A stretch of 64,000 bases of DNA, from assembly GCA_000165345.1 (NCBI GenBank), contig CM000436.1:1248001-1312000 (forward strand), given 5' to 3'. Made by a program: the position numbers and the translations under genes. The notes under the pieces were generated by a model that saw only the letters and a list, made by a program, of their open reading frames with translations, was not told the DNA's origin and ran no database searches. Of the stretch, positions 13,008 through 64,000 are shown in pieces. Positions within the stretch are counted from its first letter, which is position 1; every line of letters begins with the position of its first letter.

Positions 13008-13158
13008 TTAGATCATTGAATATTAGCTATGAGATAAACTAGATAACTTATGTAATAAATGCTAGATATTACAAATTTGATATTATTTAAAAAACTACCT
13101 CGAAATAGTTTTCATTACTATTTACTTTTCTATATTAATATTTCATAATACTTAATTC

Positions 13159-13635
13159 CTAATACAAGCCACCTCCTCCCCAGGCATCTGTAAGCTGCAG
13201 CTCTCTAAGTGTATCGCTACTAATTTGTACCGAGTGATTTTTTCCTGGCTCCCAAACATGAGCTTTAGATGAGCTGTTTGTTAACACATACTTGTATTCG
13301 ATATTCTCAATCTTACTATTTGGAACAATCTTAACATTTGCAGTCCAAAAACTTCCTTCAGTCCATTTCATTGTTAATCCATTGTCAACATTCCAGTTAC
13401 CCAGTTCAGCTATATTCCCAACTACTTTAAGTTCTTGTCCAAATTTTGTTTCAAATTTCACACCAAACTTTACAATAACGCTAACATTCATCTTCTCGCG
13501 TCGTATTGCCTCCTCCAATGCTTCCTCATATATTCTTAATTTGCGATCATGTAATTTTTTCTCATATAACTTTCTTATCCTAAGCCTATTTTCATCCAGG
13601 GTCTCCTCTGTATTTTCTTTCCTACTTGGCTCCAT
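13159..13635 (-). CDS. CBM20 (family 20 starch-binding domain) protein with an N-terminal coiled coil
   Basis: The C-terminal roughly 100 aa match the CBM20 pattern: VKFGVKFETKFGQELKVVGNIAELGNWN...MKWTEGSFWTANVKI...IEYKYVL...VWEPGKNH. This follows the consensus F.v....GQ.l.vvG....LGnW......W.......eYKyv......WE.g.N. Confidence 0.6.
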   Translation of the reverse strand: MEPSRKENTEETLDENRLRIRKLYEKKLHDRKLRIYEEALEEAIRREKMNVSVIVKFGVKFETKFGQELKVVGNIAELGNWNVDNGLTMKWTEGSFWTANVKIVPNSKIENIEYKYVLTNSSSKAHVWEPGKNHSVQISSDTLRELQLTDAWGGGGLY

Positions 13636-13993
13636 TTTGAGATCAAACTTTTTCTTCTTTTATAAAGAGACCTTCAGACTTAATAATATTTGTTCAGAGC
13701 CGTTTTGTTAACCAAATTAATTAACTAGGTCAAAATTAACCTCTGGTGTGTTTGCTTTGCTAACCCCCCCTCCTTTTCCTTTCTGCACTATATCTTGCTA
13801 TATAATATTACAATTGCTTGTTTAAATCTACTACTTCCTTGTCAAACCTTCTCAAATTTTCTTTTATTCAGTTTTTCTATACTATTTTTAAGTAAAACGA
13901 ATTTATAACGTTTCCGTAATTATATTGCTCTTTTTACTATTTCTTTTATACTATTTTATTTTCTGCCCTTAATCCCCAAATTAATTTCCCACG

Positions 13994-14009
13994 TGCATTT
14001 CCCGCCTAA
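13994..14009. promoter_or_regulatory. 16-mer GCATTTCCCGCCTAAA (E2F-core TTTCCCGCC). It is preceded by CACGTG at 13989 and repeated exactly at 18926..18941.
   Basis: An identical 16-mer sits in two unrelated intergenic regions. The CCCGCCTAA core occurs a third time at 31649..31657. Confidence 0.4.
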
Positions 14010-14114
14010 AGTAAATAGTGATCTAAATTAACTTCTTAATTAAATATAAAATAGAAACAAAAAACGTCAAGTCCCGAACCTAAATTACTTTAACAATCAA
14101 TTTGAGTAAATGAT

Positions 14115-14155
<41 letters not shown>

Positions 14156-15160
14156 CCGTAGAAAACCGGAAAAACGAATTAAACTGTATGAGACCCCATT
14201 TTAGTTGTGTTGTAAAACTATTTATTGTTGGGATAATACCAAAATAAAAAGTTTCGGTAAAGACTCATTCTCAATGAATTTTACCAAAAATTGGAGGCAA
14301 AATTATGCATGCAAAAATCACAAAAAATTTTTTTATTTTCAAAAAGTTTATATTTAAATAACTATTAAAAATAAAAATATGCATGCACATTCTTTTAATC
14401 TCTACATGCAAAACTACTTTATTATTTCATGAATCACATTTAATGTTGATTCAACATCTATTTGAATGCGCGCACATATATTTCATCAGTTAATATTAAA
14501 TAGGGTATTATATTAATTAGTACGGAAGTGATACAATTTTTCCCAAAAAAAAAAAATGAATGAAATTTTTCTCGTTTAATTTGTTTTATATTTATTAGAA
14601 ACTATTTTCTTGCACTTTTACAGTTAAATAATCATATTAATTTACATTTTTTCTCACCATTGATTCAATTGCCCATGTACTAATTCTTGTAAATCTAATA
14701 TTTGATCGTTGCCGCCAATTTACATAACGTCTCGTCTCCAGGATTGTGTGTACTATTGAGAAAAAAAAAGCTAATATTATAGAATACATGTAAAAAGCAA
14801 AGGAGTAAATATAAAATAGGGAGAGAGTGGTTAAATATATAATATATATTTATATACATATAGATATATATCTATATATACCAATAAATAATTTTGAGAA
14901 AAATAAAAAGGTAAAGGTTGCATGATTGGACAAGAATAAGAAATTGAGAAGAGTTTAAAGTCATTAAGGGGCAGACACTTTAAGAATTTGAATTTTAAGA
15001 ACACAAGATTATAGGCAGATCAATAGAGTTAGTACAGTAATTTAGTACAGATTAGCTGGAAAATTTGATAGATCTTGTAAGAAAACAATTAATAGAGCAT
15101 TGATATCAACAATTATTATCATTTTAGCTGATCTAATAAATTTAGAAAAAAATAATAAAG

Positions 15161-16135
15161 ATGCAACAGCCACAACAACCAAATGATATGTTCCATACAT
15201 CAGTAGGAGATGGAGTAACAGCAACTTGGGTAGATCCCGCACAAATGGGACAGGTAAATAATAATTGCTTCCCAAATCAAGCGCATCCATCATCAGGATA
15301 TTATCGATTGGAAGTAGACCAAGCTCCACTCATTACAGTTCCTGTAGTACAGGAGATTCAAAGAAGAGATAAAATTATTGAGGTACCTCAAACAATTATT
15401 AAAGATAAGATCTTACCAAAGATTTATCATCAGGAAGTTATTCATGAAGTTCCAAAGCTTGAAGTTGAGGTACAAGAGAAGGAGGTTGAGGTTCCAAATG
15501 TAACTGTAGTAGAAAAGGTGGTTGATTTAGAACATATTGTTGGATTCAATCCAAAGTACGTACCAACCTGGGAAGTTAGGGAAGTACCAAAACTCGTTCC
15601 AAAATTTGTTGGTGAACAAAAAGTCCTTTATATTGAAATTTCTCAAATTCAATATGTTGATAAAGTAACTGAAAAAGAGGTTGTCGTAGATGTTGTTGAT
15701 AAGGTAGTTCCAAAAGTTGTCGAAATTGAAGAGCCAATAGAAGTTATCCGATATAAATGGAAGGAAGTTTATGATGATATACCAGTTGTTAAATATGTAC
15801 CCAAGTTTGATGTTGAGGTTGTATGCCCTGCTCCAGTTATTGTGCCTTATGTGCAGCCAGAAATTAAGGATCTACCACCAGTTAAAGTTACAGTTGGCCC
15901 AGATGGTAGAGAAACCAATATGGCTCAGGATTACAATATACCAAATAATGTAGTTTCTTCACCAAATTCTATCCCAAATATGAATGCTAACTTAGCTCAA
16001 ATTAATGATATCAATAGCTCTCCCTTCCCATTACCAGAAGGAAGCCAACCAGTTGAGCCAAGAATGCCACAATTCATGAAAGGAAATATGCCAGTAAATG
16101 TTAGAGTAATGCCCCCACATCCAAATAATCAATAG
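15161..16135 (+). CDS. Alveolin-repeat inner membrane complex (IMC) protein
   Basis: The central roughly 230 aa are built from EV/VP/EK repeats: EVPQTIIKDKILPKIYHQEVIHEVPKLEVEVQEKEVEVPNVTVVEKVVD...VPKFVGEQKV...VVDKVVPKVVEIEEPIEV. These resemble the EKIVEVP-type alveolin repeat of alveolate IMC proteins. Both termini are Q/N/P-rich. Confidence 0.65.
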   Translation: MQQPQQPNDMFHTSVGDGVTATWVDPAQMGQVNNNCFPNQAHPSSGYYRLEVDQAPLITVPVVQEIQRRDKIIEVPQTIIKDKILPKIYHQEVIHEVPKLEVEVQEKEVEVPNVTVVEKVVDLEHIVGFNPKYVPTWEVREVPKLVPKFVGEQKVLYIEISQIQYVDKVTEKEVVVDVVDKVVPKVVEIEEPIEVIRYKWKEVYDDIPVVKYVPKFDVEVVCPAPVIVPYVQPEIKDLPPVKVTVGPDGRETNMAQDYNIPNNVVSSPNSIPNMNANLAQINDINSSPFPLPEGSQPVEPRMPQFMKGNMPVNVRVMPPHPNNQ

Positions 16136-16418
16136 AGTTGAATTATTTAAGAATGTTTTCATTGTGAATAAAAGTATGGTATTGTAGCTAAGAAACATTA
16201 TTTGTATTTTTTTTCAATGAAAGCACTTTTATTAAATATATCGTTGCTAACAATTGATCTTATTATATCATTTTGCTATCCAAAAAATAGCAAAGGCAAA
16301 AAATCATAGTAATGGAAAAAATAATGATTTAGTATCACCAATCAAATTTTTTTTCAATAAATATCAAATATATTTCCTTAAATAACTAATAATACTAATA
16401 ATCAATAATTGCTTATTT

Positions 16419-16739
16419 TTATTCTTGCAGTTTTTCTGATATTTTTGTTTCAAAATACTTTATCCATGTTTCTGGAACTTGCGAATACAAAAATCCCTCG
16501 ATAGTTTCGTAGAAATTTGAATCTTCCTTTTCTAAAATCCGGAAACCATTTTGGCTTATTTCTAAACTTACAATCTTTTTTTCATTAAATTTGCTAAAAT
16601 TATCCTTATTCTGCTGAAGTCCCAACGTAGCCTTTGCAATTATTTTATCTTTATAACTATTATCAATTTCTGACAAGGTCAATATATCCCCAAAATTGTT
16701 CTCAATATGTTTAACTATTTCTTCTAAAGCTGCAACCAT
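16419..16739 (-). CDS. Hypothetical 106-aa protein
   Basis: Compact, non-repetitive ORF (MVAALEEIVKHIENNFGDILTLSEID...). No family recognised. The start coordinate is taken from the ORF track. Confidence 0.35.
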   Translation of the reverse strand: MVAALEEIVKHIENNFGDILTLSEIDNSYKDKIIAKATLGLQQNKDNFSKFNEKKIVSLEISQNGFRILEKEDSNFYETIEGFLYSQVPETWIKYFETKISEKLQE

Positions 16740-17227
16740 TTGCCATAAGAAATTTTATCCCTTAATAAAAGTACTTACAAGGCTTTGATTTAACTTTCAA
16801 AATTGTTAATTTCTCTATTACTTTATTTGACTCGTTCCCCACAAAGATGTAATGTAAAATATAGCATAAACTCTTAGCCCGCTCAGTTATTTTTTATACT
16901 TTAACCATTTTTATAAATTAACTATGAAATTGAAAACTTATCAAAGGCAGATATTTTATTCAAACCTTCTGTGATATTGTCTTTTATATTTTATTCTATA
17001 ATTTTTTTTGGCTTATTTAATTAAAATATTAGAACAATAGAATATATTTTTTTCTTATTAATCTCGCAGTTAATTCCTTCCAGCAATTATTCTTCTTCTA
17101 TTCTCTTCTTTATACCTTGATTTATTTCAATTTTAGAATGATTATTTACAAGATAAAAACCTGTGCACTAAAAACTTATCTTTTTTTTTGCTTGTCATTT
17201 ACTAGCAATTTATAATCATCCTTAAAT

Positions 17228-17235
17228 GCATGCAC
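17228..17235. promoter_or_regulatory. TGCATGCA palindromic octamer, the apicomplexan upstream element
   Basis: Perfect octamers lie at 14306, 14380, 17228, 17336, 18884 and 21814, all intergenic. Two of them sit upstream of the DHHC gene. Confidence 0.35.
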
Positions 17236-17550
17236 CAATATTTCAACCGCCCTAGAATAATTACCCCATTTTTTTTATTTGCATGTGGATTTATGCCGGT
17301 ACTAGTCAAATTGGCACTGACGTGTCAACAAAAATTGCATGCAAAAAAAATTTGGGGAGAGGGGAGATGAATAAAAAGCAGTGCTAAAACATTAAAATTA
17401 TAAAAAAAAAATTGACTTTGAAATAGAAGTGTAATTGAAAACATATTATTGGGCAAAGTTGGTCAATTATAAAATCTTGGAAGAAACAAAAGAAAGGAAT
17501 TCTTCTTGAATTAATTAATTTGAATTTGAATTTATAATGAAAGTTTGAAT

Positions 17551-18636
17551 ATGGAAGAAAAAATTTCAATTACAAAATATTTACCATTCATTGTAAGTAA
17601 TAATATCCCAATCATACATTTTGAAATAATAATATCAAAAACTAATTCTGCTCTACTTAGTTTGTTTTATTCTTAACGGCAATACTTTACTTTATATACT
17701 TTGCAGTAAGTTTTTTCGTTAAAAACAAACCAAATATTTACAACTAATTAATACCTAACCAGTTCCACTTATTACCATTACTTCAAATTGGAATTTCCAA
17801 AGCATTTAGAGTTGAATCAAAATTTCAAGAAGGTAAGTTAAAGGGTACCAAAATATTTATATGGTACTAAGAAATCGTACATTATAATTCAATAACTTTA
17901 GGTGTTAGAGATTTTATCATTATAAACTTTTTGTTTGCACTATACAAAATCTCATTATTCAAATCTTTCTTTACAGATGCAGGTAGAGTTCCTGTAACTG
18001 AAGAATGGAGAAATACTCCAGATCCAAAATTAATATTTGAAAGAAAAGATGATGGAAGATTAAGATTCTGCAAATATGAATTAGTATATAAACCAGACAG
18101 AGCTCATTATTGTCGCCAGTTAAATAGAAATGTACTAAGAATGGATCATTATTGCCCATGGTTTGGAAATTGTATTGGATATTTCAACTATAAATTCTTC
18201 TTTCTTGCTCTTCTTTATGGATGTGCCTCACTTACGTACATGATGTTTAGTCAAATTAACACTTTGAGCAATATTTGGAGTGATAAAAATGTAACCTTTG
18301 GCCACTTATATCTTGTTTCGCTGGGAATCTGTTTCAGCGCAGTGCTACTCATTATAGTAGTTCCCTTCTTCTTATTTCACGCATATATTACCTCAAGAAA
18401 TGAAACAACAATCGAATTTTGCGAAAAAAGAAGTAAAGAAAAGGTAAGTTTTTACTTCATTTTAATAATCAACCTTTATTGTGCATTATAATTAGGGATT
18501 TACATATGATCAAGGAATATATAAAAATATCCAAAGTGTATTTGGCGAAAATCCGTTTTTATGGCTTGTTCCAGTCGGTTTGCCACCATCAGATGGGCTT
18601 TTCTTCCCAATAAAAAAAATTGAAAAGGAAGTATAA
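17551..18636 (+). CDS. DHHC-family palmitoyltransferase (DHYC variant). Four-exon model: 17551..17592, 17763..17832, 17977..18443, 18496..18636.
   Basis: Track ORF 17931..18491 contains the DHHC-CRD: CKYELVYKPDRAHYCRQLNRNVLRMDHYCPWFGNCIG, with two transmembrane segments after it. GTAAGT donors lie at 17593, 17833 and 18444. Acceptors are CAG at 17760-62, ACAG at 17973-76 and TTAG at 18492-95. The reading frame is preserved across all three junctions and terminates at TAA 18634-36. Only one TM precedes the CRD, so a further 5-prime exon may be missing. Confidence 0.6.
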
Positions 18637-19168
18637 TTTTTAAATCAAATCCCAACCACTTAGTAATGAAACATCTATTTGTAATAATTATTTAAATTCA
18701 AAGCTAATTGCTAAAACCTTTTTTATCTACGTCATCCGTAACAAAACTTCTATTTTTTTAAACATAGATTATTCAGTCTAAGAAGAGACTGACACAGTGT
18801 ATGATTTATTATTGAATACCAATAAAAAATTTGTATTTCATATATATTCGACATCTCACAATCAATTTTGAATTTTTGTTTTTTGCATGCAATACTTTCA
18901 CCCCACAGACTCGAATCTACCGCTAGCATTTCCCGCCTAAACAAGCAATGGGGTGTAAAATTACTTGAATCCCTCATCCACACAAATAAATTGCGCAAAT
19001 AAAGAATAATTGATATATAAGGAATTTGTTTGAAGGAGCTAATTTGAGGGGATTTTTTTTAATTGAAATATCGATAAAACTCAAAGCTTAAAGAAGTAAT
19101 TAAGACATAAATCATAGAAAAGAGTAAAATATTAGTATTCACTGTTTAGATTAGAGGAAATTAAAAAA

Positions 19169-19627
19169 ATGAGCGAACAATCTAATGTACAAGCAGTGCA
19201 ACCAGAACAACAAACACAACAGATTGCAGGAGCACAAGCTCAGATTGGAATGAATGCAGGAGTAGCATCTGCAGGTGTACCGTACAGTTCCGGTATGGGC
19301 CAAAATATGGTATTCCAATCTATGGCAGGAGGAAGTGGTTATTTCTTCCCTCCAAATGGTTCAGCCCCAATGAGTATGGGAAGTGGAGCATTTGCAAGTG
19401 TCGGAATGCCAGGAATGTATGAACTCGACCCAAATATGCTTTCAGGTGGCTATTCTGCTCCTTATGGCTCCGCTATGGGAAGTAGCTTCTATCTTCCAAA
19501 TCAATATGGAGGTTCAGGAGTTATGACAATGCCATATACTTATGATCCTTATGGCTTGATCAACCCAGGAATTATTCCTCCAGTTGCAACAAAGATAGCT
19601 AAGAAGAAGAGATCAGGATGCTGCTAA
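19169..19627 (+). CDS. Hypothetical Gly/Ser/Met/Tyr-rich low-complexity protein ending in polybasic KKKRSGCC
   Basis: 152-aa ATG ORF. The N-terminus is Gln/Ala-rich, the body is G/S/M/Y-rich, and the C-terminus is ...IAKKKRSGCC-stop. This resembles a Rab-type double-Cys lipidation tail, but there is no GTPase domain. Confidence 0.4.
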   Translation: MSEQSNVQAVQPEQQTQQIAGAQAQIGMNAGVASAGVPYSSGMGQNMVFQSMAGGSGYFFPPNGSAPMSMGSGAFASVGMPGMYELDPNMLSGGYSAPYGSAMGSSFYLPNQYGGSGVMTMPYTYDPYGLINPGIIPPVATKIAKKKRSGCC

Positions 19628-19739
19628 ACAGTTTTCATTGAATCACAATCGGCCTATAAGATATAGTATAGTTAATCTACTGTATTACGTAATTACTCTG
19701 TTTTGTAAATCTTTTTTTTATAAAGTTGTATTGCGACCG

Positions 19740-20226
19740 CTACTGTAAAAGTAACCTTCTTGCTGCTTGTCTGACTCTTACATCAAATGAAGGTGTCAAT
19801 ATTGGCTGATTTGCCTCTTGGAAAGGATTCATTAGGATTTTTACGTACAAATCTCTAACCTCATTAAAAAATTGTCTTATATTCTCACTGCTCTTGCCAT
19901 GATGTAGAAGTAGAAACTTTGTGTGTCCTGGTGTTACAAATGCCGAAATCTGGGTATCTCCAAGCTTATAAATTGTTCTCATATACCTGAAATAAAAGTT
20001 TAATCAAACAAATTTTTCTATTTTCTCAAATCTAATAAACTTACAATGCTGAATTTCTCCAAGTATTCTCATCCAATGCATCCAATGAAGCATGAATCAA
20101 TAACTCGTCGGCGCAACCATTCGATCCTATTTTCCCTGTGTTATTAGACAAATCTACTTCATATAGGGGAGAGTCATTTCTTCCCACTATTGTAAATATC
20201 AAACAATCCTGATTTGTATGTATCAT
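19740..20226 (-). CDS. TRAPPC2: Sedlin / TRAPPC2 (Trs20) TRAPP complex subunit. Two exons, 20045..20226 and 19740..19986, with intron 19987..20044.
   Basis: Track ORFs 20041..20226 (CLIFTIVGRNDSPLYEVDLS...ADELLIHASLDALDENTWRNSA) and 19740..19982 (ISAFVTPGHTKFLLLHHGKSSENIRQFFNEVRDLYVKILMNPF) align with human sedlin. The matching human segments are FYFVIVGHHDNPVFEMEF...HAALDLVDENMW and VSAFVTAGHMRFIMLHD...FFTDVYDLYIKFSMNPF. They join in frame through a 58-nt GTAAGT..TTTCAG intron, giving a 142-aa product. Confidence 0.75.
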
Positions 20227-39181: not shown

Positions 39182-42100
39182 TTAAAGCATTATTAATTCT
39201 TCAGTTATGCATTTGCACTCTGAAAGCTTGTTTTCGCAGTTAGTGCAAATAGGTAGTTGAGGGGAATTCTCATCCAGAATATGGTTATCAAATAGTTTGG
39301 GAATATTACATTTAGTATGAAAACTGAGATCCATTATCACTTTTGAAAGCATTCTTCTGGTGGAATTGCTAGAAAAATGCTTTTCTCCCAAAGTGTATGG
39401 AGTTGTGAAAATTGAATAAGGTACTTTTGCATTGAAGTAGTATAGATTTGTAGATCTTTCAAATGAATGAAATTCAGTATTTTCAATAAGGATGATGAAA
39501 TCCCTATAGTCGAGCTCTCCAGAATTTATGAATGCTCTCTTTAATTTATTGTTAACCCTCTCACACATTCTTAAATCTGAATCGTGAGATCCCATAGAAT
39601 GCACTCTAACAAATACCTTTGATCCCATAGAAGTGAGTAAAAGTACTTTGAATTCAAAACAGTGTTCAAATCCTCTTTTTCTCTCTTCAATTTGATATAC
39701 CTGAAGAATAAGTCCCAAAATACGTATTGGCCACCCTCCCTTACAGTTAATGATATTCTCTGGGTCATTTTCAAATGTTAAAACTGGCCTTTTTACAAAA
39801 TCAATTACTCTAGTAAGGATAATATCATCATTAACTCTTTTCTTTGCAGTTAAAGAAGTTTTTGGAGATGGAACTAATTTGGAGAATGAACATCCTAGGC
39901 TTCTTATTGTACTATTTTTAATAACTTTCATCCAAGAAAGTCGAATTACAGTCCCTGGTTTAATGCTCGTAATTTCGTCAATATCCATACCTGAAGGAAG
40001 AGTTAATATAGAGCAGTTATTAATTAATTCAAACATATCTATTTTTTGTTGATTTCTTTCCTTAAGATTCATAAACTTCCAGTAATCTAAAACAAGTAGT
40101 TTTGATTCTAAAGATATTTTCCTTCTCTTAGTATTTTCAATAGGAGAATCTTGTGAATCTGATTCTGGCTGTTGTAAACTTTTTTCATACATTTCATAGA
40201 TTTCATTATTTATTGAAATATCCATTTCATTTTGGTCTCTTGTAATAAAAATTCTTTTATTATCATCTTGTAAAGTTTCTATCATCTCTTTATAGCAAAT
40301 TGGAAATATGTGAATAACTATTACCTGGACCAAAAAAGATAAACCTCCTCCTTTATCCATGCTACTATGCCTTTTCTCGTTATCATTTGGTTCCCTTGAA
40401 ATAATGGAGATTTCTGAGCTATTTAAAAGTTTTGAAATCCTAAAAAGAAGTGGTTTTAAATGGAATCCAAGTTTAAATCCAGATAATTTTCTTATCGGTC
40501 TAACCAAATTGATTCCATAAATCATTAATGGAAAATCCTGAGTTGAAGCTTCTATTTCCAATGGATGTCCATGTTCTATATTAGAATTTAACCAGTTACC
40601 ACCACACAAAAAAATATTTCTAGGCATATTCTGAATCAAAGATTTAATTAAAGTAATGTTTGTGAGTATCTTTACTATATACCATCCATCTGTACATAAC
40701 ATGATTCTATTTGTATTGGAATCATTAAATTCATCTAATCCGACTTTGTCAGTATAACTTAATATTCTTAAATTTAAAGGTGCAGATACAGTGAAATCTC
40801 CCTCGCATATTTTTATTAGAGAAGATCTCTTTGCATCAAAAAATTCAATGATTGCTCTTTTGCAAATTCTTCTAAGAATTCTTTGTATTGAAGGATACTT
40901 TATTTGTGCTAAATTTGAAAAAAGTAATTCTCTAGTCTTGTCAATTGAATTAAATCCATTAAATTCTTTAATAAATGCTTTAATAGTAGTTTTAATTTTC
41001 CTTGACCAGTTTAAACATTCTTCATATAGAATTAGCATATACTGAACTTCGAGCCACCTCTGTCTGTACCGAGACATATTACTTGGAAATATTGGGAATT
41101 GAATAAAGAAATTCTCAATCTCGTCACAAATCATCCTAAAATCTACTTCAATATACTTTCCTTTAGAATCATCTGTTTCTTTAGTATCTTTTAAGAGAAA
41201 AGTGTACTTCTTCAAAGTTTCTAACGAATGATCAATCAAAATTAATGTTGGTGGAATTACCTTTCTCGATTTTAAACATGCTAATGAGTATTGAATACTA
41301 TCATATCTTTTGAAAAACTTGGGTATAACTAATTCTTCCCTAGTTAGCTTTCTATTCTTTTTATTTAAAGTATTTTCATAATTATTTCTTTGTAATAAAT
41401 TGGGATACATATTACTTTTTGTTTTTCCCAAAACATTGCATCCGATTCCTAATTTTGCATCATCCTTTAATGATTGTTTTATCGTTTCTTTGACTGAAGT
41501 TATACTAGCATTTTCTATTTCACTTTCAAACCCTCCTACCAGTTTCTTTGCTTTGTTTAGGCTTTCCTCATCTATCGATACCTTTTTTCCACTACCAGTG
41601 GAAAATGAAATGGACATGTTACCTCCAATTGGTGATCCTCCTGAAGGGGACCCTCCTACTAGTTTCTTGGCTCTATTTAAACTTTCCTCATCTATCGATA
41701 CGCTTTTTCCACTGGCTGTGGAAAACGAAATAGGAATGTTACGACCAATTGGTGATCCTCCTGAAGGAGAACCTCCTACTATTTGCTTAGCCCTACTCAA
41801 GCTCTCTTCAGTGATTGATACCTTTTTTCCGCTCCCAGTGGAAAATGAAATGGACATGTTACCTCCAATTGGTGATCCTCCTGTAGGGGACCCTCCTACT
41901 AGTTTCTTGGCTCTATTTAAACTTTCCTCATCTATCGATACACTTTTTCCACTGGCTGTGGAAAACGAAATAGGCATGTTACGACCAATTGGTGATCCTC
42001 CTGAAGGAGAACCTCCTACTATTTGCTTAGCCCTACTCAAGCTCTCCTCATCTATCGATACCTGTTTTCCGCTCCCAGTGGAAAATGAAATGGGAAAGTT

Positions 42101-43510
42101 ACCTCCAATTGGTGATCCTCCTACTATTTGCTTAGCTCTATTCAAGCTCTCTTCAGTGATTGATACCTTTTTTCCACTACCAGTGGAAAATGAAATGGGC
42201 ATGCTACTTCCAATTAGTGATCCTCCTAAAGGTGAACCTCCTACTATTTGCTTAGCCCTACTCAAGCTCTCTTCAGTGATTGATACCTTTTTTCCGCTCC
42301 CAGCGGAAAATGAAATGGGCAAGTTACCTCCAATTGGTGATCCTCCTAAAGGTGAACCTCCTACTATATGCTTACCTCTGTTAAAGTTTTCTTCATCTAT
42401 TGATACTTTTTTCCCACTCCCAGTGGAAAATGAAATGGGTAAATTAGTTCCAGTCTTGGACCTTCCAACTATGTTATTTTTTAACTTTTCAGTTGCAGTA
42501 AACCTGTCCAAATTAATTGAAGCATTTTCAGCAATCCCAAAAGAATGTGAAAAACAAAAGTTGTTTTCTGATTCAAATTGGCTTTCTTTTTCCTGTTGAA
42601 AATGATCGACTAACTCAATATTATCGCTTTTATTTTCTATAATATTTTTTGTACAAAAATTATTAGAAAATGGTAGATTTTTATCCTCAATAAAGTAATT
42701 TTCTTTGTCTAAACAATTACTTGAGTCCATAAAATTATCTTTTTCCTTACATTCATTTTTTGAAACCATCCCATCAATTTTGAATGAAATTAAATTTTGA
42801 ACATCAAATTCATTGAATTGTTTTTCTCCCATTTCTTTATCAAATCCAAAAGTATTATTAAAACTATTTGACTTTATTGATATTCCTCGATCAATAATTA
42901 TATCAGTTTCACTCTCCATAAAATCTTCAAGTTTATTACCATTGAATAGGACTTGATCTTTATTTGTATAATAAATTTCTGATATATTACGAGATTTTTC
43001 TGTCCCTCTAATTTCTCTTTGAAGAAAGTTAGTGTTATCATTCATTGATTTATCAGATTTATCAGAAACTCTTGTTTTTAAATCTGCTTTATTATTACTT
43101 TTGAAACTTGAACTCCCAACAAAACTCATTATATTTTGTAGAAACTCCTCGTTAGTTTGCTCAATCTTATTTAAAATGTTATTAGTATTTTTATTCTTAA
43201 TTTTGCTTTCAAACATCTTAGATGTAGCATGAGCTTCTGTTCCTAAATCAGTTTTCTTATTACCAATTAATAATTCACCTAGAGTTGGTTTTGAAATAGT
43301 ATTGGAAAATAAATTGTGATTTTTTGAAGCAGCTTCACAGTTCTCTAAAACTTTGGAAGAATTCAATAAATCTGACTCAAAGAATTTCTTGATTTCATCA
43401 TCTTCATTAAGAAGAATTTCCTGGTTTACACCATCTGTATTCGAACCAATATTTCCTTGAAACAACTCATCCAATAGGCATTGTCCAAGCTCATCCTCAT
43501 CCTTAGACAT
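39182..43510 (-). CDS. BRCA2: BRCA2 orthologue with eight tandem BRC (RAD51-binding) repeats and a C-terminal helical/OB-fold DNA-binding domain
   Basis: Eight repeats of about 40 aa carry the BRC core FS(T/A)(G/A)SGK(K/S)VSI(D/T)EESL(S/N)(R/K)AK; compare human BRC4 [23 protein letters not shown]. The C-terminal region TDGWYIVKILTNITLIKSLIQN...KLGF...VIVIHIFPICYKE parallels human BRCA2 OB1 [22 protein letters not shown]...KLGF...VDVIIQRAYPIQW. The start is a real ATG. Confidence 0.8.
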   Translation of the reverse strand: MSKDEDELGQCLLDELFQGNIGSNTDGVNQEILLNEDDEIKKFFESDLLNSSKVLENCEAASKNHNLFSNTISKPTLGELLIGNKKTDLGTEAHATSKMFESKIKNKNTNNILNKIEQTNEEFLQNIMSFVGSSSFKSNNKADLKTRVSDKSDKSMNDNTNFLQREIRGTEKSRNISEIYYTNKDQVLFNGNKLEDFMESETDIIIDRGISIKSNSFNNTFGFDKEMGEKQFNEFDVQNLISFKIDGMVSKNECKEKDNFMDSSNCLDKENYFIEDKNLPFSNNFCTKNIIENKSDNIELVDHFQQEKESQFESENNFCFSHSFGIAENASINLDRFTATEKLKNNIVGRSKTGTNLPISFSTGSGKKVSIDEENFNRGKHIVGGSPLGGSPIGGNLPISFSAGSGKKVSITEESLSRAKQIVGGSPLGGSLIGSSMPISFSTGSGKKVSITEESLNRAKQIVGGSPIGGNFPISFSTGSGKQVSIDEESLSRAKQIVGGSPSGGSPIGRNMPISFSTASGKSVSIDEESLNRAKKLVGGSPTGGSPIGGNMSISFSTGSGKKVSITEESLSRAKQIVGGSPSGGSPIGRNIPISFSTASGKSVSIDEESLNRAKKLVGGSPSGGSPIGGNMSISFSTGSGKKVSIDEESLNKAKKLVGGFESEIENASITSVKETIKQSLKDDAKLGIGCNVLGKTKSNMYPNLLQRNNYENTLNKKNRKLTREELVIPKFFKRYDSIQYSLACLKSRKVIPPTLILIDHSLETLKKYTFLLKDTKETDDSKGKYIEVDFRMICDEIENFFIQFPIFPSNMSRYRQRWLEVQYMLILYEECLNWSRKIKTTIKAFIKEFNGFNSIDKTRELLFSNLAQIKYPSIQRILRRICKRAIIEFFDAKRSSLIKICEGDFTVSAPLNLRILSYTDKVGLDEFNDSNTNRIMLCTDGWYIVKILTNITLIKSLIQNMPRNIFLCGGNWLNSNIEHGHPLEIEASTQDFPLMIYGINLVRPIRKLSGFKLGFHLKPLLFRISKLLNSSEISIISREPNDNEKRHSSMDKGGGLSFLVQVIVIHIFPICYKEMIETLQDDNKRIFITRDQNEMDISINNEIYEMYEKSLQQPESDSQDSPIENTKRRKISLESKLLVLDYWKFMNLKERNQQKIDMFELINNCSILTLPSGMDIDEITSIKPGTVIRLSWMKVIKNSTIRSLGCSFSKLVPSPKTSLTAKKRVNDDIILTRVIDFVKRPVLTFENDPENIINCKGGWPIRILGLILQVYQIEERKRGFEHCFEFKVLLLTSMGSKVFVRVHSMGSHDSDLRMCERVNNKLKRAFINSGELDYRDFIILIENTEFHSFERSTNLYYFNAKVPYSIFTTPYTLGEKHFSSNSTRRMLSKVIMDLSFHTKCNIPKLFDNHILDENSPQLPICTNCENKLSECKCITEELIML
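41525..42470. repeat. Tandem array of eight units of about 120 bp (a 240-bp higher-order period) encoding the BRC repeats of BRCA2
   Basis: Plus-strand blocks 41581..41820 and 41821..42060 are near-identical, with only a few substitutions. Units alternate between two subtypes. The antisense ORF 41400..42599 (399 aa) is an artefact of this array. Confidence 0.85.
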
Positions 43511-58501: not shown

Positions 58502-58913
58502 TTTTAAGTATTTTTTTTAAAATAAATTTCTTTTTTTTTAATTTTTTGATTAATATTCTTGTGGGTATCTTTCTACAAGGGTAACGTGTGCGTGAAAACG
58601 AATAAATAAATCAAATGAAAGTCCCAAAGCGAGTTCAAATATCAAATATTCACAAAAACAGGATTTTAGTAAGTGTCTGTTGATGTTTAAGAACAATTCT
58701 GAACAAGTAAACTTTCTATATTAAGCTAAAGATTTTAATAGATAGATTGTGTGCGTGTGTACAAATATAAAATTGGACACACAAAAATTAACATAATATA
58801 AATAAAACTTGGAATGAAAGAAACTAAAAGAAGAGATTTAGATGAGAAGGTTAAGAGAGAATTAGTTTTAGGTACCCAGAAAGCAAAACTTTCGTTTCTA
58901 TGTGGTGTATAAT

Positions 58914-61900
58914 ATGTTTATTAAAAAGTTCATTTTAATATTTCTTATTTTAATATTTTTAATATGTCAGACCCAGGGAATTAGTAATGATTTAAGTTCA
59001 TTAACATCAAATTTAGTCTCAAAATACATGACGAAGGAAGAGTTTTTGGGCGAATGTAAAAGAGAATTGCCGAAATTTAGATCAAATCTTACAGAAACGC
59101 AAGTTTATTTTTTGTGTTTAAAGGCACTTAAGTCTTCATTAGATAAAATATACAATAGCCCAGTGGGGAAGCTTTTAAATTCAGATTCAGTTCCCGAAGA
59201 TGTTGTTGAACACAAAACAGAGAATGATAATGTTGAGGGATATCGTAAACTACTTGACGATGTTTCAAATATTTTCTCTAGTGATGTTTATTTTGATGAA
59301 GATCTATTGGAAGCAGACAATGGTTTATTTTCAAATTCAATACAAACATTACTAGAGATTGATAAGAAGGAATTAAAGAGAAAGGAATTCATGGAAAAGA
59401 AGATAAAAGAAATTCAAAATACTGAAGAAAGACTTAGAGAAGAGTACAGAGAAAAGTTAAAAAAAAAATATCCTGAAGCTTACCATCCTTTAGCTCTAGA
59501 AATCTTTTCAACAATTTCAAAAGAAGATATTGAAACTTGGATGAATCTTCCTTTGAAGCTGAAGCTACCTGTTATTAATTACTACTTCTTGTTAGTTGCT
59601 ACAATGGGACAATCTTCTGAAAAAGAAGACAGACATAAAATATTTACAAAAGCAATTATATCTACAATAATAAGCAAAAATGAAATAAAGATTCCTAAGT
59701 ATATGACTTTACAAGATATAAGGTACGAGATTTGTAAGTTTGGAATGATTCATAAGTCAGGGTGTAAAATAGTTCCTTTCTCTACTTTGCTTTCTTTGCC
59801 TAGACACTCTTTTGAAATTTGGAAATCCTTTGGTTTAGTTCTTCAATTTGAGTTTTTGATCGCTATGACTTATAGTATAGAACACGAAATGAATTTTGAT
59901 AATTGTGACAAAGAAATATTTAAGATCACAAATGAAAAAAAGCTTAGAAAAGAAGAAGAAAGTAAAATTCGAGTTTATCTCTCGCATTTATTTCCAGAGG
60001 AAGATTCACTTCCATTGAAACATTTTAAAAGTGTCTTAAAATATCTTCTAGATATAGCAGTGAATGATGAACCATCCAAGTTAGACGATCAAAGTCAGTC
60101 ATATTCAGTAGTTAGTTCAAATTTTGCTCAAGAGAAGAATGATCAAACTTCTTCAATTCAAGTAAAACAATCAGAAAGTATTAATTTGGAGCTGGCCAAA
60201 GAAACAAAAATAGAAAATGAAGTTAAAGATAAAATTGAACATCAAGAGAAAAAGGTTACTGGCTTTTTTGATGAAGTAAAGGATGTTTCTACAATAGATA
60301 GTGAAAAAGTTGAGATTGATAAAAATGAATATAGTTCTAGAGAATACCCCACTCTAAATAATGACACTGATAATATTATAGAAGTTGCAAAGTTAGAAGA
60401 AATAAGGAAAATAAAAGATAACGGTATTAAAGAGAGCACTGCAGATAATAAGAATGAGGAAGAGTTTAATTTGATATCCTTAGTAAATTCTGAAACCAAA
60501 GTAAGAAACGCAAAAATTACTATGGAATCAGAAAAAAGTAATGGCTTAAAGAAGATTGATGTAGAAGGGCTTAATAGCCTCCCTCCTAATGAGTATAATC
60601 CATATTCAAATGTCGGCATTGGATCTGGCTTGATGAATAAAGAAGATGATGACTCATTTCCGGAAGAGGAAGAAAATCCTGAATTGGGAGATGAGTCTAA
60701 TGATGATTTAGAAGAAGGACAAGAAAACATTGAGAGTCATGAAGGTGATAACATGGAAAATGAGGATAATGGTGAAAATACCAATGCCGAAGAGTTGGGA
60801 GATGAGGGAAAGAAGGACGACTTGGATACTAGACAAGATGAATTGGATGGAGACTCTGGAAATGGAGAAGATCTTGGCCATAACGGAGAGGGAGAAGATG
60901 AAAATGATGATAAAGATGATACAGATGGTAGTGACCAGGATGGAAACAATGAAGAAGATACTCCAGATGGTGGGGACATAGGAGGTACAGATCAAGAAGA
61001 TTCTGATTCTGGAGGAGAGGCAAAAGGAACAGATTACGACGGAGAAGAAGGTAAGGAATTAGATTCCGATTCTGGAGATGGAGAAGGCGGAGGTGGAGAA
61101 GACAATGATGAAGTAGATGACGAAGAATCTAATTCAGGGGATGGTGATCATGGCGGAGATGATGGAGGAGATAATGATGAAGGAGAAGACGGGGAATCTA
61201 ATTCTGGAGATGGGGAAGAAAGTGGAAGCGGAGAAAACAATGGTGAAAGAGAGGAAGAAGAATCTACTTCAGGAGATGGAGGTTTTGGAGGAGATGTTGG
61301 AGGAGATGGTGGAGGAGATGGTGGAGGAGATGATGGAGGAGATGGTGGAGGAGATAATGATGGAGGAGATGAAGAATCTAGTTCTGGAGATGGGGGAGGA
61401 GGAGAAGATAATGATGAAGGAGAGGACAAAGAATCTAGTTCAGGGGATGGTGATCATGGCGGAGATGATGGAGGTGATAATGATGAAAGAGAAGACGGAG
61501 AATCTAATACTGGAGATAGAGAAGGAGGGGAAGAAGGCGACTCAGATTCCGGAGGATACGGAGGAGATAAGGATGAAGAAGGTGGAGATCTAGATTCTGA
61601 TTCAGGAGATGGTGGAAATGATGGAGGAGATAAAGATGGAGAGGGTGGGGACTTAGATTCTGATTTGGAAGATGGCGGAGATGATATAGGTGGGGGAGGT
61701 GGAGGCGAAGGAGAAGAAGGCGATTTAGATTCTGGAGGAGATGGTGGTGATTATATGGGCGACAGCAATAAAGATTCAGATTTAGGAGATAGGGCCGAAG
61801 TTGGTGGAGGTGGAGACGAAGGAGAAGATGGTGGTTTAGATTCTGGAGGGGGTGGGTTGGACAATTTTGAAGGTAACACAGGAGATTCATACTCTGAAAG

Positions 61901-64000
61901 TAATGATGCTTTTGGAATAGGAGGTGGAGATTACAGAAGAGATAGTGACGAGGACTCAGATCTTGGCTCAGCAGAAGAAGTTGGAAGTTCTAAAACGAAA
62001 GGTAAGGGCGAAGGAGACGATTTTGATAGAGACCTAGATTCTAATTCCATGGAAGCCGGTGGAATTAGTGGAAATTTTGGAGGGGGAAATACAAATCAAA
62101 ATGATTTAGAGTACTCCACAGGGAATTCAGGATCTGGAGGTTTAGGAAATAATGAATTTGAGGGGGATCCTTTATCCGGAAGTGGAGATAAAGGCGGATT
62201 TGATGATTCTTACTCTTCCTCAGTGGGCAACAATGATAAAGGGGGAGGATTTGGAAAAGAAGTACCTAGTTTCGATATTGAAACAGGAGATAATTTAAAT
62301 TCAGGAGACTCTAATTCATTTGGAAATTCTAGCTTCAAAGGTTTAAACAATGTGGATAATGATGACTTTGAAGCAGGTTCAGAAAAAGGTATTGATTTAC
62401 CTATAGAAGACAAAATTAGAAACGATATTGATGATTTAGATTCAACTTTCAATGGCCTAAACACACCTATTGATAGCTTTGATAATTCTGGAATAGGCTC
62501 AAAAGAAAATTTAGAATTGGATGGTATTTTAGCTAGCAACCAAAAATTTAACGATAATGATGATATGGAAATTGCGGAAGGATTGCCTACAGTAGATCAA
62601 CCTAGCTTGGGAATTGAAGAAGGCAATGAGATAGGAGGGCCTACTATAGTTAGCGAGCTAGATTTTGGTAATGGGGAAGAAGTAAAGGATTTAGACAAAA
62701 GTCTCGAAGAATTAAAAGACAGTCTTGGAGGTTCAACTGTAGATAACACAGGAGTTGACGACTTATTTGGAAATGGAATTAATAAGTCGAACAACCTTGG
62801 AATAAATGAAAATGAAATTCTTGGAGGCGAAGATTTTGGAAATGAAGTCCAATTCGGTCAAGGGGATACTAATGATGAAGTTGAAAACCTATTAAATGAG
62901 ATCCAAGAAGGAAATAATTTGAATATTGAAAATAACTACGACGAGTTAAATAATATTCAAGGAACCGAAGCAATAGATATTCAACCAAATAATACTGACA
63001 ATTTCCTTGATTCATTATTAATATCTGGCAATACAGGGGATGTTGAAATTGAATTAAATCCTATGAGTGGTGATAATAAAGATATTAATTCTGAATTGGA
63101 ATTACTTAATAACGTAGGAAATCCTAGTTTTGATATTGACAAGAACCCAAGTCTTTTTGAGATGGATAATAACGCGTATGGAAGGATAAATGAGGCAGAA
63201 ATAGATAAAGATCTGGATGAAGCTGCTAGTAATTTACAAATTCCTAATAATGAAATTAATTTTGGCCCAAATGATAGCTTTGAAATTCAAAATAAAAATT
63301 TGGAAACAGAATTGGAGGAATTAACAAAGTTGGGTGATCCAGGTACTGAAGTTCCAGGAATTAATTCGGATTTTCCCGATAATTCAGTTTTGCCGGAAAC
63401 AGTGGGTTTAAATGATGAATTCAAGGTATTGGAGGATTTGAGTGCTGATGGACCATTAGAAGAGGATGAATTCGAATTTTTAGAGAGAATGCTGAATGAA
63501 AAAGGAGCTAATAGAGAATTTGAGTTTGCTAGTACAGTGGATTCAGAGGAATTTACAGATGAAGAGGAGCTTGACGCATTAAATTTACCTAATGGCCAAC
63601 TTAATGTTGGATATGGACTTAATTCACAAATTCCATTATCAACACAAAGCCAGACTCAAAGCGAAAAAGACGAACCTTCTGTTGTACCAAATGACCAATT
63701 AAGTCTTGTAATTAATAGTATTCCAGGAGCGGACGATAACTCAGCAATAGAAATAAATGAAGCTTTGATGAGAGATCCGGGTACTCTAGACTCAATTTAC
63801 GAAGATCTTAATGATATTATTAATGATTTAAATCAAAATACTTCTTTTCCTGTAGAGATTCCAGAAATTGATCAAATAGATACAATAAGAACAAATTCAG
63901 ATCAAGCTATTGATAATAATATAAGTAATATTTATTCAGATTTTATTGAAAATGACAGAGAATCGACAAATATCAATACAATTGATGGAAGTTTGGATAT
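58914..64000 (+). CDS. Partial (3-prime end beyond the window) very large secreted, extremely acidic Gly/Asp/Glu/Ser/Asn-rich repetitive protein, more than 1695 aa. It is absent from the supplied ORF track.
   Basis: An ATG at 58914 opens a frame with no stop through position 64000, translated by hand; an in-frame TAG lies at 58869. The N-terminus MFIKKFILIFLILIFLICQTQG is a signal peptide. Residues 1 to about 560 are a non-repetitive, helix-rich domain. From about 60650 onward come degenerate acidic repeats (GDGGGDGGGDDGGDGGGDNDGGDEESSSGDGGGGEDNDEGEDKESSSGDGDHGGDDGGDNDE...). A long D/E/N/G-rich region follows. Track ORFs 60242..60730, 60737..60979, 61148..61429, 61504..61890 and the plus-strand ORFs at 60730 and 61117 are off-frame or antisense artefacts of this gene. 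Confidence 0.7.
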   Translation, partial: MFIKKFILIFLILIFLICQTQGISNDLSSLTSNLVSKYMTKEEFLGECKRELPKFRSNLTETQVYFLCLKALKSSLDKIYNSPVGKLLNSDSVPEDVVEHKTENDNVEGYRKLLDDVSNIFSSDVYFDEDLLEADNGLFSNSIQTLLEIDKKELKRKEFMEKKIKEIQNTEERLREEYREKLKKKYPEAYHPLALEIFSTISKEDIETWMNLPLKLKLPVINYYFLLVATMGQSSEKEDRHKIFTKAIISTIISKNEIKIPKYMTLQDIRYEICKFGMIHKSGCKIVPFSTLLSLPRHSFEIWKSFGLVLQFEFLIAMTYSIEHEMNFDNCDKEIFKITNEKKLRKEEESKIRVYLSHLFPEEDSLPLKHFKSVLKYLLDIAVNDEPSKLDDQSQSYSVVSSNFAQEKNDQTSSIQVKQSESINLELAKETKIENEVKDKIEHQEKKVTGFFDEVKDVSTIDSEKVEIDKNEYSSREYPTLNNDTDNIIEVAKLEEIRKIKDNGIKESTADNKNEEEFNLISLVNSETKVRNAKITMESEKSNGLKKIDVEGLNSLPPNEYNPYSNVGIGSGLMNKEDDDSFPEEEENPELGDESNDDLEEGQENIESHEGDNMENEDNGENTNAEELGDEGKKDDLDTRQDELDGDSGNGEDLGHNGEGEDENDDKDDTDGSDQDGNNEEDTPDGGDIGGTDQEDSDSGGEAKGTDYDGEEGKELDSDSGDGEGGGGEDNDEVDDEESNSGDGDHGGDDGGDNDEGEDGESNSGDGEESGSGENNGEREEEESTSGDGGFGGDVGGDGGGDGGGDDGGDGGGDNDGGDEESSSGDGGGGEDNDEGEDKESSSGDGDHGGDDGGDNDEREDGESNTGDREGGEEGDSDSGGYGGDKDEEGGDLDSDSGDGGNDGGDKDGEGGDLDSDLEDGGDDIGGGGGGEGEEGDLDSGGDGGDYMGDSNKDSDLGDRAEVGGGGDEGEDGGLDSGGGGLDNFEGNTGDSYSESNDAFGIGGGDYRRDSDEDSDLGSAEEVGSSKTKGKGEGDDFDRDLDSNSMEAGGISGNFGGGNTNQNDLEYSTGNSGSGGLGNNEFEGDPLSGSGDKGGFDDSYSSSVGNNDKGGGFGKEVPSFDIETGDNLNSGDSNSFGNSSFKGLNNVDNDDFEAGSEKGIDLPIEDKIRNDIDDLDSTFNGLNTPIDSFDNSGIGSKENLELDGILASNQKFNDNDDMEIAEGLPTVDQPSLGIEEGNEIGGPTIVSELDFGNGEEVKDLDKSLEELKDSLGGSTVDNTGVDDLFGNGINKSNNLGINENEILGGEDFGNEVQFGQGDTNDEVENLLNEIQEGNNLNIENNYDELNNIQGTEAIDIQPNNTDNFLDSLLISGNTGDVEIELNPMSGDNKDINSELELLNNVGNPSFDIDKNPSLFEMDNNAYGRINEAEIDKDLDEAASNLQIPNNEINFGPNDSFEIQNKNLETELEELTKLGDPGTEVPGINSDFPDNSVLPETVGLNDEFKVLEDLSADGPLEEDEFEFLERMLNEKGANREFEFASTVDSEEFTDEEELDALNLPNGQLNVGYGLNSQIPLSTQSQTQSEKDEPSVVPNDQLSLVINSIPGADDNSAIEINEALMRDPGTLDSIYEDLNDIINDLNQNTSFPVEIPEIDQIDTIRTNSDQAIDNNISNIYSDFIENDRESTNINTIDGSLD

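Follow-up and report, generated by a model that had tools for sequence, protein, structure and literature searches.

The cgd8_5290 locus and its open reading frame

The 64,000-nt stretch of DNA analyzed here (the window) ends inside a long reading frame on the plus strand. Translation in frame +1 from the ATG at position 58914 gives 1695 codons free of stops up to position 64000, a run whose probability of arising by chance, computed from base composition, is ≈1e-61 to 1e-68. The nearest upstream in-frame stop is a TAG at 58869, and 58914 is the first ATG past it. The original prediction that no stop interrupts this interval and that the frame outlasts the window held on re-inspection. Public chromosome CP029787.1 is identical to the window, and extension of the frame along it places the stop at window-equivalent position 65684, for a total of 2256 amino acids. 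The ORF list for 58914–64000 shows only ten short ORFs, all off-frame or antisense. By its own description, the lister leaves out ORFs that run off the source, so the absence of the long frame from the track is a tool artifact, in line with the earlier explanation that only stop-delimited ORFs are reported. The stretch from 58914 to the end of the window covers the first (5′) three-quarters of a genuine protein-coding gene with a single exon. Its mature product is a protein of ≈246 kDa in which 571 Asp and Glu residues face 203 Lys and Arg residues; over the first 2170 residues, the computed pI is ≈4 and the net charge −367. The 2256 residues include six cysteines, one of them inside the signal peptide.

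The gene is almost certainly Cryptosporidium parvum cgd8_5290 on chromosome 8 because it is flanked by cgd8_5280 upstream and cgd8_5300 downstream. The former encodes a pseudouridine synthase (Tandel et al. 2019), and the latter encodes the dense-granule protein DG8; the downstream gene product, with 816 residues (≈90 kDa), Ser25, and Gly403, agrees with the published DG8 = cgd8_5300 fragment S25-G403. A gene table in Tandel et al. 2019 lists cgd8_5290 between these two neighbors as "Uncharacterized Secreted Protein"; the table is described there as coming from CryptoDB, and its attribution to that paper is our own. One ortholog already carries the public label [quoted passage not shown]. The gene had been singled out as a striking uncharacterized one, which is accurate as regards function; it is not, however, an overlooked gene, being present in public annotations. 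In this respect the finding is an ordinary one: the missing ORF reflects the ORF lister, and the gene is already annotated with the same label. Within the collection of papers searched, no text names the locus tags of cgd8_5290 or its orthologs.

Orthologs are found in C. meleagridis (CmeUKMEL1_07845), C. ubiquitum (cubi_03755), C. bovis (FG379_002575), C. canis (KAJ1605540), the species of assembly GCA_014529505 (KAF7459457), and C. muris (CMU_011820 together with the adjacent gene). A profile of aa 23–401 built from three species matched six Cryptosporidium proteins at E values of 1e-68 to 1e-219 and, among 1.84 billion representative proteins, nothing outside Cryptosporidium. A word-indexed protein search gave two partial orthologs for the N terminus and no match for the C-terminal half or the C-terminal motif; it evidently misses long orthologs and is uninformative for long proteins. 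Gene order upstream, with the pseudouridine synthase gene, is the same in C. canis, the GCA_014529505 species, and C. muris, and a DG8-like gene lies downstream in C. muris, so that the synteny with DG8 is kept out to that species. By these comparisons, the position and architecture of the gene are conserved across Cryptosporidium. The orthologs share the N-terminal domain, the overall architecture, and the C-terminal motif with cgd8_5290 and differ in their low-complexity body, which is rich in Gly, Asp, and Glu in C. parvum, C. meleagridis, C. ubiquitum, and C. canis and is made of other acidic repeats in C. bovis and C. muris.

The signal peptide and an alternative first exon

Directly 5′ of the start codon lies a conserved 42-nt leader (58872–58913, plus strand) that contains an invariant, out-of-frame upstream ATG (ATGTGGTG). 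Among the three species compared, this leader is the sole well conserved block of an otherwise diverged intergenic region. The ATGTGGTG core occurs once in the window, and C. muris also has it shortly before its in-frame start. The leader may function as a 5′ UTR element or an upstream ORF.

The start codon and signal peptide (aa 1–22, MFIKKFILIFLILIFLICQTQG) occupy 58914–58979 on the plus strand. By inspection, the peptide combines an n-region of MFIKK with a hydrophobic core of 12 residues and has Thr at −3 and Gly at −1, bearing out the earlier description of a clean signal peptide. A hydrophobicity scan of the first 2170 residues showed no other hydrophobic segment; the remaining 86 were inspected only visually. 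An equivalent hydrophobic N-terminal peptide ending in Gly is present in C. canis, C. ubiquitum, C. bovis, and the GCA_014529505 species, and in C. muris, the signal peptide sits 16 codons upstream of the annotated start. From this N terminus, the cgd8_5290 protein is very probably secreted.

On the identical chromosome, the NCBI gene model implies a different N terminus, with a 54-nt first exon at 58615–58668 on the plus strand followed by a 302-nt intron at 58669–58970. The gene called on CP029787.1 and CM109968.1 covers positions 12837–19906 of segment L016, with a product of 2255 residues, a length matched exactly only by exons 12837–12890 and 13193–19906 of that segment with GT..AG borders; the donor (GTAAGT) and acceptor (CAG) are canonical. 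Use of this intron would remove the signal peptide, and the protein would not be secreted but would instead be a cytosolic or nuclear acidic protein starting with MKVPKRVQISNIHKNRIL-TQGISN. A nuclear location would fit a Lys/Arg-rich run resembling a nuclear localization signal (NLS) at aa 2065–2088 in C. parvum and C. meleagridis. However, C. canis and the GCA_014529505 species conserve neither the exon nor its donor, and in six species, C. muris among them, the would-be intronic codons still encode an in-frame, hydrophobic signal peptide that ends in Gly. Moreover, C. ubiquitum and C. bovis lack the basic run, which is not conserved in C. muris either, and the Tandel et al. 2019 table calls the protein "Secreted". 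We therefore regard the spliced, nonsecreted form as distinctly unlikely.

Domain architecture of the predicted protein

Following the signal peptide, residues 23–395 (58980–60098, plus strand) form a genus-specific, all-helical N-terminal domain. Cys48, Cys68, and Cys274 are invariant, and Cys284 is kept only in the intestinal species. In structure prediction with AF2, three sequences gave an unusable pLDDT of 43.5, and seven gave a moderate overall value of 61.9, with 75–92 over aa ≈187–382. A PDB sequence-profile search produced only a chance match (E 0.15), and the domain has no fold match. The original prediction of a helical domain at the N terminus was right in kind, but its length of ≈560 residues was too great, as the domain gives way to a Lys/Glu/Ser-rich linker (aa 396–485; 60099–60368, plus strand) and then to a second conserved patch (aa 486–570; 60369–60623, plus strand). 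The linker is poorly conserved (35% identity with C. ubiquitum, 19% with C. bovis) and falls on the disordered side of the charge–hydropathy plot. The patch, which holds DNIIEVAKL and SNGLKKIDVEGLNSLPPNEYNPYSNVG, is visible in alignments (89% identical in C. meleagridis, 62% in C. ubiquitum) and was recovered by tblastn in C. canis and the GCA_014529505 species.

Pfam searches added no homology for the N-terminal region or beyond: the 1695 in-window residues matched no family at E≤0.01, and at E≤1, aa 1–588 and aa 1089–2256 gave nothing relevant, the sole match being to Cucumo_2B by chance (E 0.18). No paralog of the N-terminal domain, the second patch, the mid motif, or the C terminus was found elsewhere in the window or in the retrieved loci.

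Residues 571–1010 (60624–61943, plus strand) make up a hyper-acidic Gly/Asp/Glu low-complexity core with a net charge of −155, in which G+D+E accounts for 60–77% of each 100-residue window. The core contains degenerate tandem repeats with periods of 12, 24, 36, 63, 69, and 171 nt, and its frequent k-mers include DGGD, SGDG, GDGGGD, and GGDDGGD. Units of the types GDGGGD, GDDGGDNDE, and ESSSGDG had been described, and we find GDGGGD, GDDGGD, and ES(N/S)SGDG. The tract itself is real, but it spans only ≈440 residues rather than the >1100 residues of nearly pure G/D/E/S/N first proposed; residues 1011–2256 contain 25–48% G+D+E and 16–31% hydrophobic residues. At the position of the core, the repeats are EENDAH in C. 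bovis and rich in Glu, Asn, and Lys in C. muris. Because these species have other acidic repeats in place of Gly/Asp, we read acidity, along with predicted disorder, as the conserved property and the Gly/Asp composition as lineage-specific.

The C-terminal half is moderately acidic and rich in Asp, Glu, Asn, and Leu; it occupies aa 1011–1695 in the window (61944–64000, plus strand) and runs on to aa 2256. Its net charge is ≈−0.18 to −0.20 per residue, which places it on the disordered side of the charge–hydropathy plot, as is the case for aa 396–2256 overall. These ≈1250 residues of milder acidic sequence are probably disordered. A hydrophobic-Phe-[Glu/Asp/Lys] motif occurs 12 times in comparison with 3.8 expected. 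Within this disordered half, aa 1516–1547 (63459–63554, plus strand) form a conserved island, EEDEFEFLERMLNEK...FASTVDSEEF, in which EEDE, LE, and STVDSEEF are invariant from C. parvum through C. bovis. Identity over aa 1501–1560 is 87% with C. meleagridis, 57% with C. ubiquitum, and 47% with C. bovis.

Beyond the window, on the public chromosome, the protein ends near an invariant motif of ≈30 residues, EKEWIxSFAPKLRPGRMxxRRDxF(S/T)xEEI (aa 2218–2246). In the form EWIM.F.PKL...DLF(S/T).EEI, it is present in C. parvum, C. meleagridis, C. ubiquitum, C. bovis, and C. muris. A furin-like cleavage site (RRR|D) considered within this motif was dropped, as C. muris reads RKRPD there.

The basic run in the C-terminal half also bears on whether the protein might be an effector exported to the host cell and imported into the host nucleus. 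In MEDLE2, a KDVSLI motif lies at aa 31–36, Leu35 is essential, and folded fusions block export (PMC8687662). A similar motif follows the signal peptide here (NDLSSL, aa 25–30), in the GCA_014529505 species (KDVGLL), and in C. ubiquitum (NDISSL), with Leu30 invariant; most of the protein is predicted to be disordered, and the NLS-like run RKKRKKRKKIKKK could serve for import. Yet a six-residue motif is weak evidence, and its Leu is offset by one relative to KDVSLI. The basic run is, as noted, poorly conserved in the genus, the conserved folded domain of ≈375 residues is of the kind that blocks MEDLE2 export, and a polyanion of 246 kDa is an unlikely translocon substrate. Taken together, we consider a MEDLE2-like route highly improbable.

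Expression and candidate role of cgd8_5290

The gene is transcribed, most strongly in sporozoites (log2 CPM ≈7.3), with lower values at 24 h (6.3) and 48 h (5.8). Among sorted samples, in-vivo females were highest at 6.9, followed by asexual stages (5.7) and in-vitro females (3.3); the in-vitro females differ from the asexual stages by a log2FC of −2.3 (5-fold lower). These levels are modest next to those of dense-granule genes, with DG8 at log2 CPM 9–10 and cgd8_5340 at ≈12.7.

Both composition and expression speak to the earlier suggestions of a mucin-like surface or glycocalyx glycoprotein and of an oocyst-wall matrix component. The protein is large, secreted, and repetitive, as are gp900 and gp40/15 of the invasive stages; giant surface glycoproteins are known in Cryptosporidium, and transcripts are present in the in-vivo female samples. 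Cryptosporidium mucins, however, are Thr/Ser/Pro-rich and heavily O-glycosylated, whereas cgd8_5290 from aa 486 on contains 10–13% Ser+Thr and 1–3% Pro, reaches 20% Ser+Thr only in the linker (aa 396–485), has no Thr/Ser/Pro runs, and has only 10 N-x-S/T sequons; the mucin-like option fails on these figures. A wall component is also unlikely: in contrast to the oocyst wall proteins (COWP), with their Cys-rich repeat arrays and female up-regulation, cgd8_5290 has only six cysteines, a lower transcript level in in-vitro females, and its peak in sporozoites. Overall, a surface or wall role of this type is very unlikely.

Further points of comparison are DG8, adjacent in conserved synteny, and other dense- and small-granule proteins of the host–parasite interface. 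Signal peptide plus high disorder were the selection criteria used for DG8 (PMC13241007), and cgd8_5290 is predicted to have both; like DG8, it is also acidic, genus-specific, and expressed in invasive stages. It differs in being 2.8 times larger, with a lower transcript level, and it does not appear in the DG8 or SG4 pull-down tables. Paralogy of the two was rejected, as BLASTP gave no sequence similarity (E = 1). Because the genome is compact, adjacency to DG8 says little about shared function.

Resemblances further afield are to the Plasmodium proteins Pf332 and GLURP, which are also secreted and have a structured N-terminal part followed by long, fast-evolving, acidic degenerate repeats. 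The profile search detected no sequence relationship to them, and cgd8_5290 differs in favoring Gly/Asp over Glu and in its conserved C-terminal motif. With the granins and calsequestrin it shares a signal peptide, a pI of ≈4, long disordered Asp/Glu-rich tracts, and multibasic sites, so that these proteins offer a plausible analogy for its mode of action. Granins and calsequestrin-type proteins are low-affinity, high-capacity Ca2+ binders, which raises the alternative that cgd8_5290 is a lumenal Ca2+ store buffer retained in the endoplasmic reticulum (ER), the acidocalcisome, or a granule. Its extreme acidity (−155 over the 440-residue core and −367 over the first 2170 residues), predicted disorder, signal peptide, and several multibasic sites are in keeping with such a role, but no Pfam match ties it to the calsequestrin or granin families, the composition of the acidic tract varies freely between species, and no K/HDEL-type retention signal ends the protein in any species examined (C-termini RLA, QKA, DLG, and NYL). 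We consider a retained store buffer unlikely; it overlaps the reading we prefer if its compartment is a secretory granule.

On balance, and with moderate confidence, we favor a secreted acidic granule-cargo protein as the best explanation of cgd8_5290 as a whole. Its likeliest role, by inference, is that of a polyanion acting at the host–parasite interface as soluble cargo of a sporozoite secretory organelle; that it is such cargo has roughly even chances. The protein would enter the secretory pathway with removal of its signal peptide, be stored as soluble cargo in an invasive-stage organelle (dense granule, small granule, or microneme), and be released at or after invasion into the host–parasite interface or parasitophorous vacuole. 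The folded N-terminal domain and the C-terminal motif could provide specific contacts for sorting or partner binding, and the polyanionic disordered body could act as a low-affinity, high-capacity binder of Ca2+, other cations, or basic partners and as a space-filling or condensing matrix. A secreted polyanion that might bind Ca2+ or other cations had been suggested from the start, and a secreted polyanion or cation binder is still the most sensible physical reading; cation binding is predicted from composition alone, and we hold a cation-binding or matrix role only tentatively.

More specifically, and by analogy with granins, the polyanionic body might condense with Ca2+ or basic cargo to pack a granule core and, after discharge, expand into a charged gel layer at the interface, with the C-terminal motif as a sorting or docking signal. 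This version is doubtful, but if true, that motif would be the first sorting motif for soluble cargo to be defined in Cryptosporidium granules. cgd8_5290 is a genus-restricted, sporozoite-expressed giant protein, very probably secreted, that adjoins the interface protein DG8 and bears a strictly conserved C-terminal motif; were it a component of the interface or of a granule matrix, it would add to a sparse parts list of the Cryptosporidium host–parasite interface.

The analysis also has practical value, as it points to apparent errors in several public models of this gene. Two C. parvum assemblies carry a model that splices out the signal peptide. Among the orthologs, several models are truncated, split, or lack the signal peptide, the last being the case for C. 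meleagridis and C. muris, and the C. muris gene is divided into two. The Gly/Asp repeat interrupts every short-read assembly, all of which end within it at ≈61160.

Complete reading frame and identity of the gene

Translation of the window from the ATG at position 58914 of the forward strand yields 1695 codons in frame +1 with no stop up to position 64000. Judged by the base composition of either this region or the window as a whole, a stop would be expected every 11–13 codons, and a stretch this long would arise by chance with a probability of ≈1e-61 to 1e-68. The stop-free frame of at least 5.1 kb noted originally is confirmed. An artefactual reading of the frame is excluded. The closest in-frame stop upstream is the TAG at 58869, and 58914 is the first ATG past it. 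Only ten short ORFs, all off-frame or antisense, appear in this region of the ORF track; because the lister, by its own description, omits ORFs running off the source, the absence of the gene is a tool artefact, as had been suspected.

Exact protein matches place the window on a 1.34-Mb chromosome carried by two NCBI assemblies. We extended the frame downstream in L016, a public locus on the identical chromosome (CP029787.1, no difference from the window across 20,222 bases compared), and reached a stop at window-equivalent 65684. The product is 2256 residues long and ends in ...EEAIKEARLA. Its mature chain of ≈246 kDa contains 571 Asp+Glu, 203 Lys+Arg, and 244 Gly; for residues 1–2170 the calculated pI is ≈4.05 and the net charge −367. 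A scan of residues 1–2170 identified the signal peptide (residues 1–22) as the sole hydrophobic stretch of membrane-segment length, and none was seen by eye in the last 86 residues. K/HDEL is absent from the C terminus; a role as a retained Ca2+ buffer was among those considered. The two long-read C. parvum assemblies differ at only three positions in the gene, all non-synonymous: D1626N (window 63789), D1715N (window-equivalent 64056), and N1776S (window-equivalent 64239).

GC content is 30%, and neighboring ORFs match Pfam families for SRP receptor alpha, a CLU/eIF3-p135 protein, an RNB-domain exonuclease, an amino-acid permease, and a pseudouridine synthase. A further neighbor is a 1442-residue BRCA2 homologue (39182–43510, reverse strand) carrying an OB1 domain in addition to eight BRC repeats. 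Taken with the GC content, this gene set suggests a compact eukaryote. The next gene downstream (L016 20117–21503, window-equivalent 65895 onward) encodes 816 residues, ≈90 kDa, with Ser25 and Gly403, in agreement with the size predicted for C. parvum DG8 (cgd8_5300) and with the recombinant S25-G403 fragment described in the same paper (PMC13241007); we therefore assign it as DG8. Together with the gene order in supplementary tables, in which cgd8_5280 "Pseudouridine synthase I TruA" is followed by cgd8_5290 "Uncharacterized Secreted Protein" and then cgd8_5300 (Tandel et al. 2019, PMC6877471), this match settles the studied gene as cgd8_5290 of C. parvum chromosome 8. The earlier observation was correct but ordinary: existing annotation already includes this gene, under a similar description. 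The 2019 annotation also places an identifier, cgd8_5293 ("Uncharacterized protein"), between cgd8_5290 and cgd8_5300 (PMC6877471). NCBI assemblies call no separate gene in that interval, and cgd8_5293 could represent the C-terminal half of cgd8_5290, formerly split off as its own gene.

Start codon and upstream leader

On the identical chromosome, the NCBI annotation gives a 2255-residue product starting 299 nt upstream. By length arithmetic, from which we reconstructed the exon structure, this size is reproduced exactly, and only, by a 54-nt first exon (58615–58668, forward strand), a 302-nt GT..AG intron, and an exon from 58971 (exon plus intron, 58615–58970; L016 12837–13192). Such a structure would remove the signal peptide and imply a non-secreted isoform. 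However, neither the upstream exon nor its donor is conserved in C. canis or the species of GCA_014529505, whereas in those two species, C. ubiquitum, and C. bovis the would-be intronic codons still encode, in frame, a hydrophobic peptide with a terminal Gly. C. muris likewise has an in-frame 16-codon signal peptide (MKLLSIKFVIYLALIL) upstream of, and omitted from, its annotated start. This pattern of conservation makes the signal-peptide isoform very probably the correct one and argues that the NCBI spliced model is wrong or represents a minor isoform.

Directly 5′ of the start codon, a leader of ≈40 nt (58872–58913; ≈9960–10000 in both L013 and L014 and 9940–9955 in L019, the compared loci, the last from C. 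muris) is conserved between species, unlike the remaining intergenic region. The core that does not vary, ATGTGGTG, supplies an upstream ATG in another frame, from which a short uORF runs into the main start; the leader may serve to control translation or to mark where transcription starts. Farther upstream, 58700–58790 contains an inverted-repeat-like pair, GTGTGCGTGTGT ... GACACAC, kept in C. canis and partly in a third species.

Domain layout and conservation

The conserved all-helical domain, with three invariant cysteines, spans residues 23–395, shorter than the ≈560 residues originally proposed, and is followed by a poorly conserved linker (396–485) and a second conserved patch (486–570). 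Also overstated was the description of more than 1100 residues as almost entirely G/D/E/S/N: the hyper-acidic Gly/Asp/Glu core of degenerate tandem units is confined to residues 571–1010 (60–77% G+D+E, net charge −155), and residues 1011–2256 form a milder Asp/Glu/Asn/Leu-rich region with 16–31% hydrophobic residues, on the disordered side of the charge-hydropathy plot. Within this region are a conserved island, EEDEFEFLE...STVDSEEF (1516–1547), a Lys/Arg-rich run (2065–2088), and an invariant C-terminal motif, EKEWIxSFAPKLRPGRMxxRRDxF(S/T)xEEI. Hydrophobic-Phe-[Glu/Asp/Lys] motifs occur there 12 times versus 3.8 expected, a count reached in 2 of 5000 shuffles. All short-read (Logan) contigs of the locus stop at approximately window 61160, inside the Gly/Asp repeat, and contigs of C. 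canis and GCA_014529505 likewise end within it. The array breaks assemblies and may vary in repeat number.

The product has no Pfam match and no PDB sequence match. An N-domain profile, run exhaustively with HMMER against 1.84 billion representative proteins, matched six of them, all from Cryptosporidium (C. canis, the GCA_014529505 species, C. meleagridis, C. ubiquitum, C. bovis, and C. muris), and gene order is kept in all three species whose loci were compared (C. canis, the GCA_014529505 species, and C. muris). At the C. muris locus (L019 10001–16631, DS989737.1), CMU_011820 (595 residues) is followed 11 nt on by a 1610-residue model that terminates in the family's C-terminal motif, so the two look like one orthologue split in annotation. 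The acidic body varies in composition, with EENDAH-type repeats in C. bovis and Glu/Asn/Lys-rich repeats in C. muris. Selection preserves the N-domain, the C-terminal motif, the short islands, and a low-complexity spacer that is acidic, but not its richness in glycine.

Expression and proposed role

The region is transcribed, with log2 CPM of 7.2–7.4 in sporozoites, 6.1–6.5 at 24 h, and 5.6–6.0 at 48 h, and, in sorted populations, 5.7 in asexual stages, 3.3 in in-vitro females, and 6.9 in in-vivo females (Tandel et al. 2019, PMC6877471). The sporozoite peak and low level in in-vitro females suit a protein made for invasive stages better than a component of the oocyst wall, a role that we considered together with that of a mucin.

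The product is likely secreted, and most likely serves as soluble cargo of a secretory organelle, discharged at the host-parasite interface. The N-terminal fold and the motif at the C terminus would confer specificity, while the disordered polyanionic body would bind cations or form a matrix. We also considered an exported effector like MEDLE2, prompted by the similarity of the N-terminal NDLSSL/KDVGLL to KDVSLI; the folded domain and huge size of the cgd8_5290 product argue against it. Searched paper texts contained no mention of the locus tags of cgd8_5290 or its orthologues. The cgd8_5290 product has no sequence similarity to DG8. A DG8-like gene also lies downstream of the C. muris orthologue, and two probably secreted, disordered proteins are thus kept adjacent across the genus.
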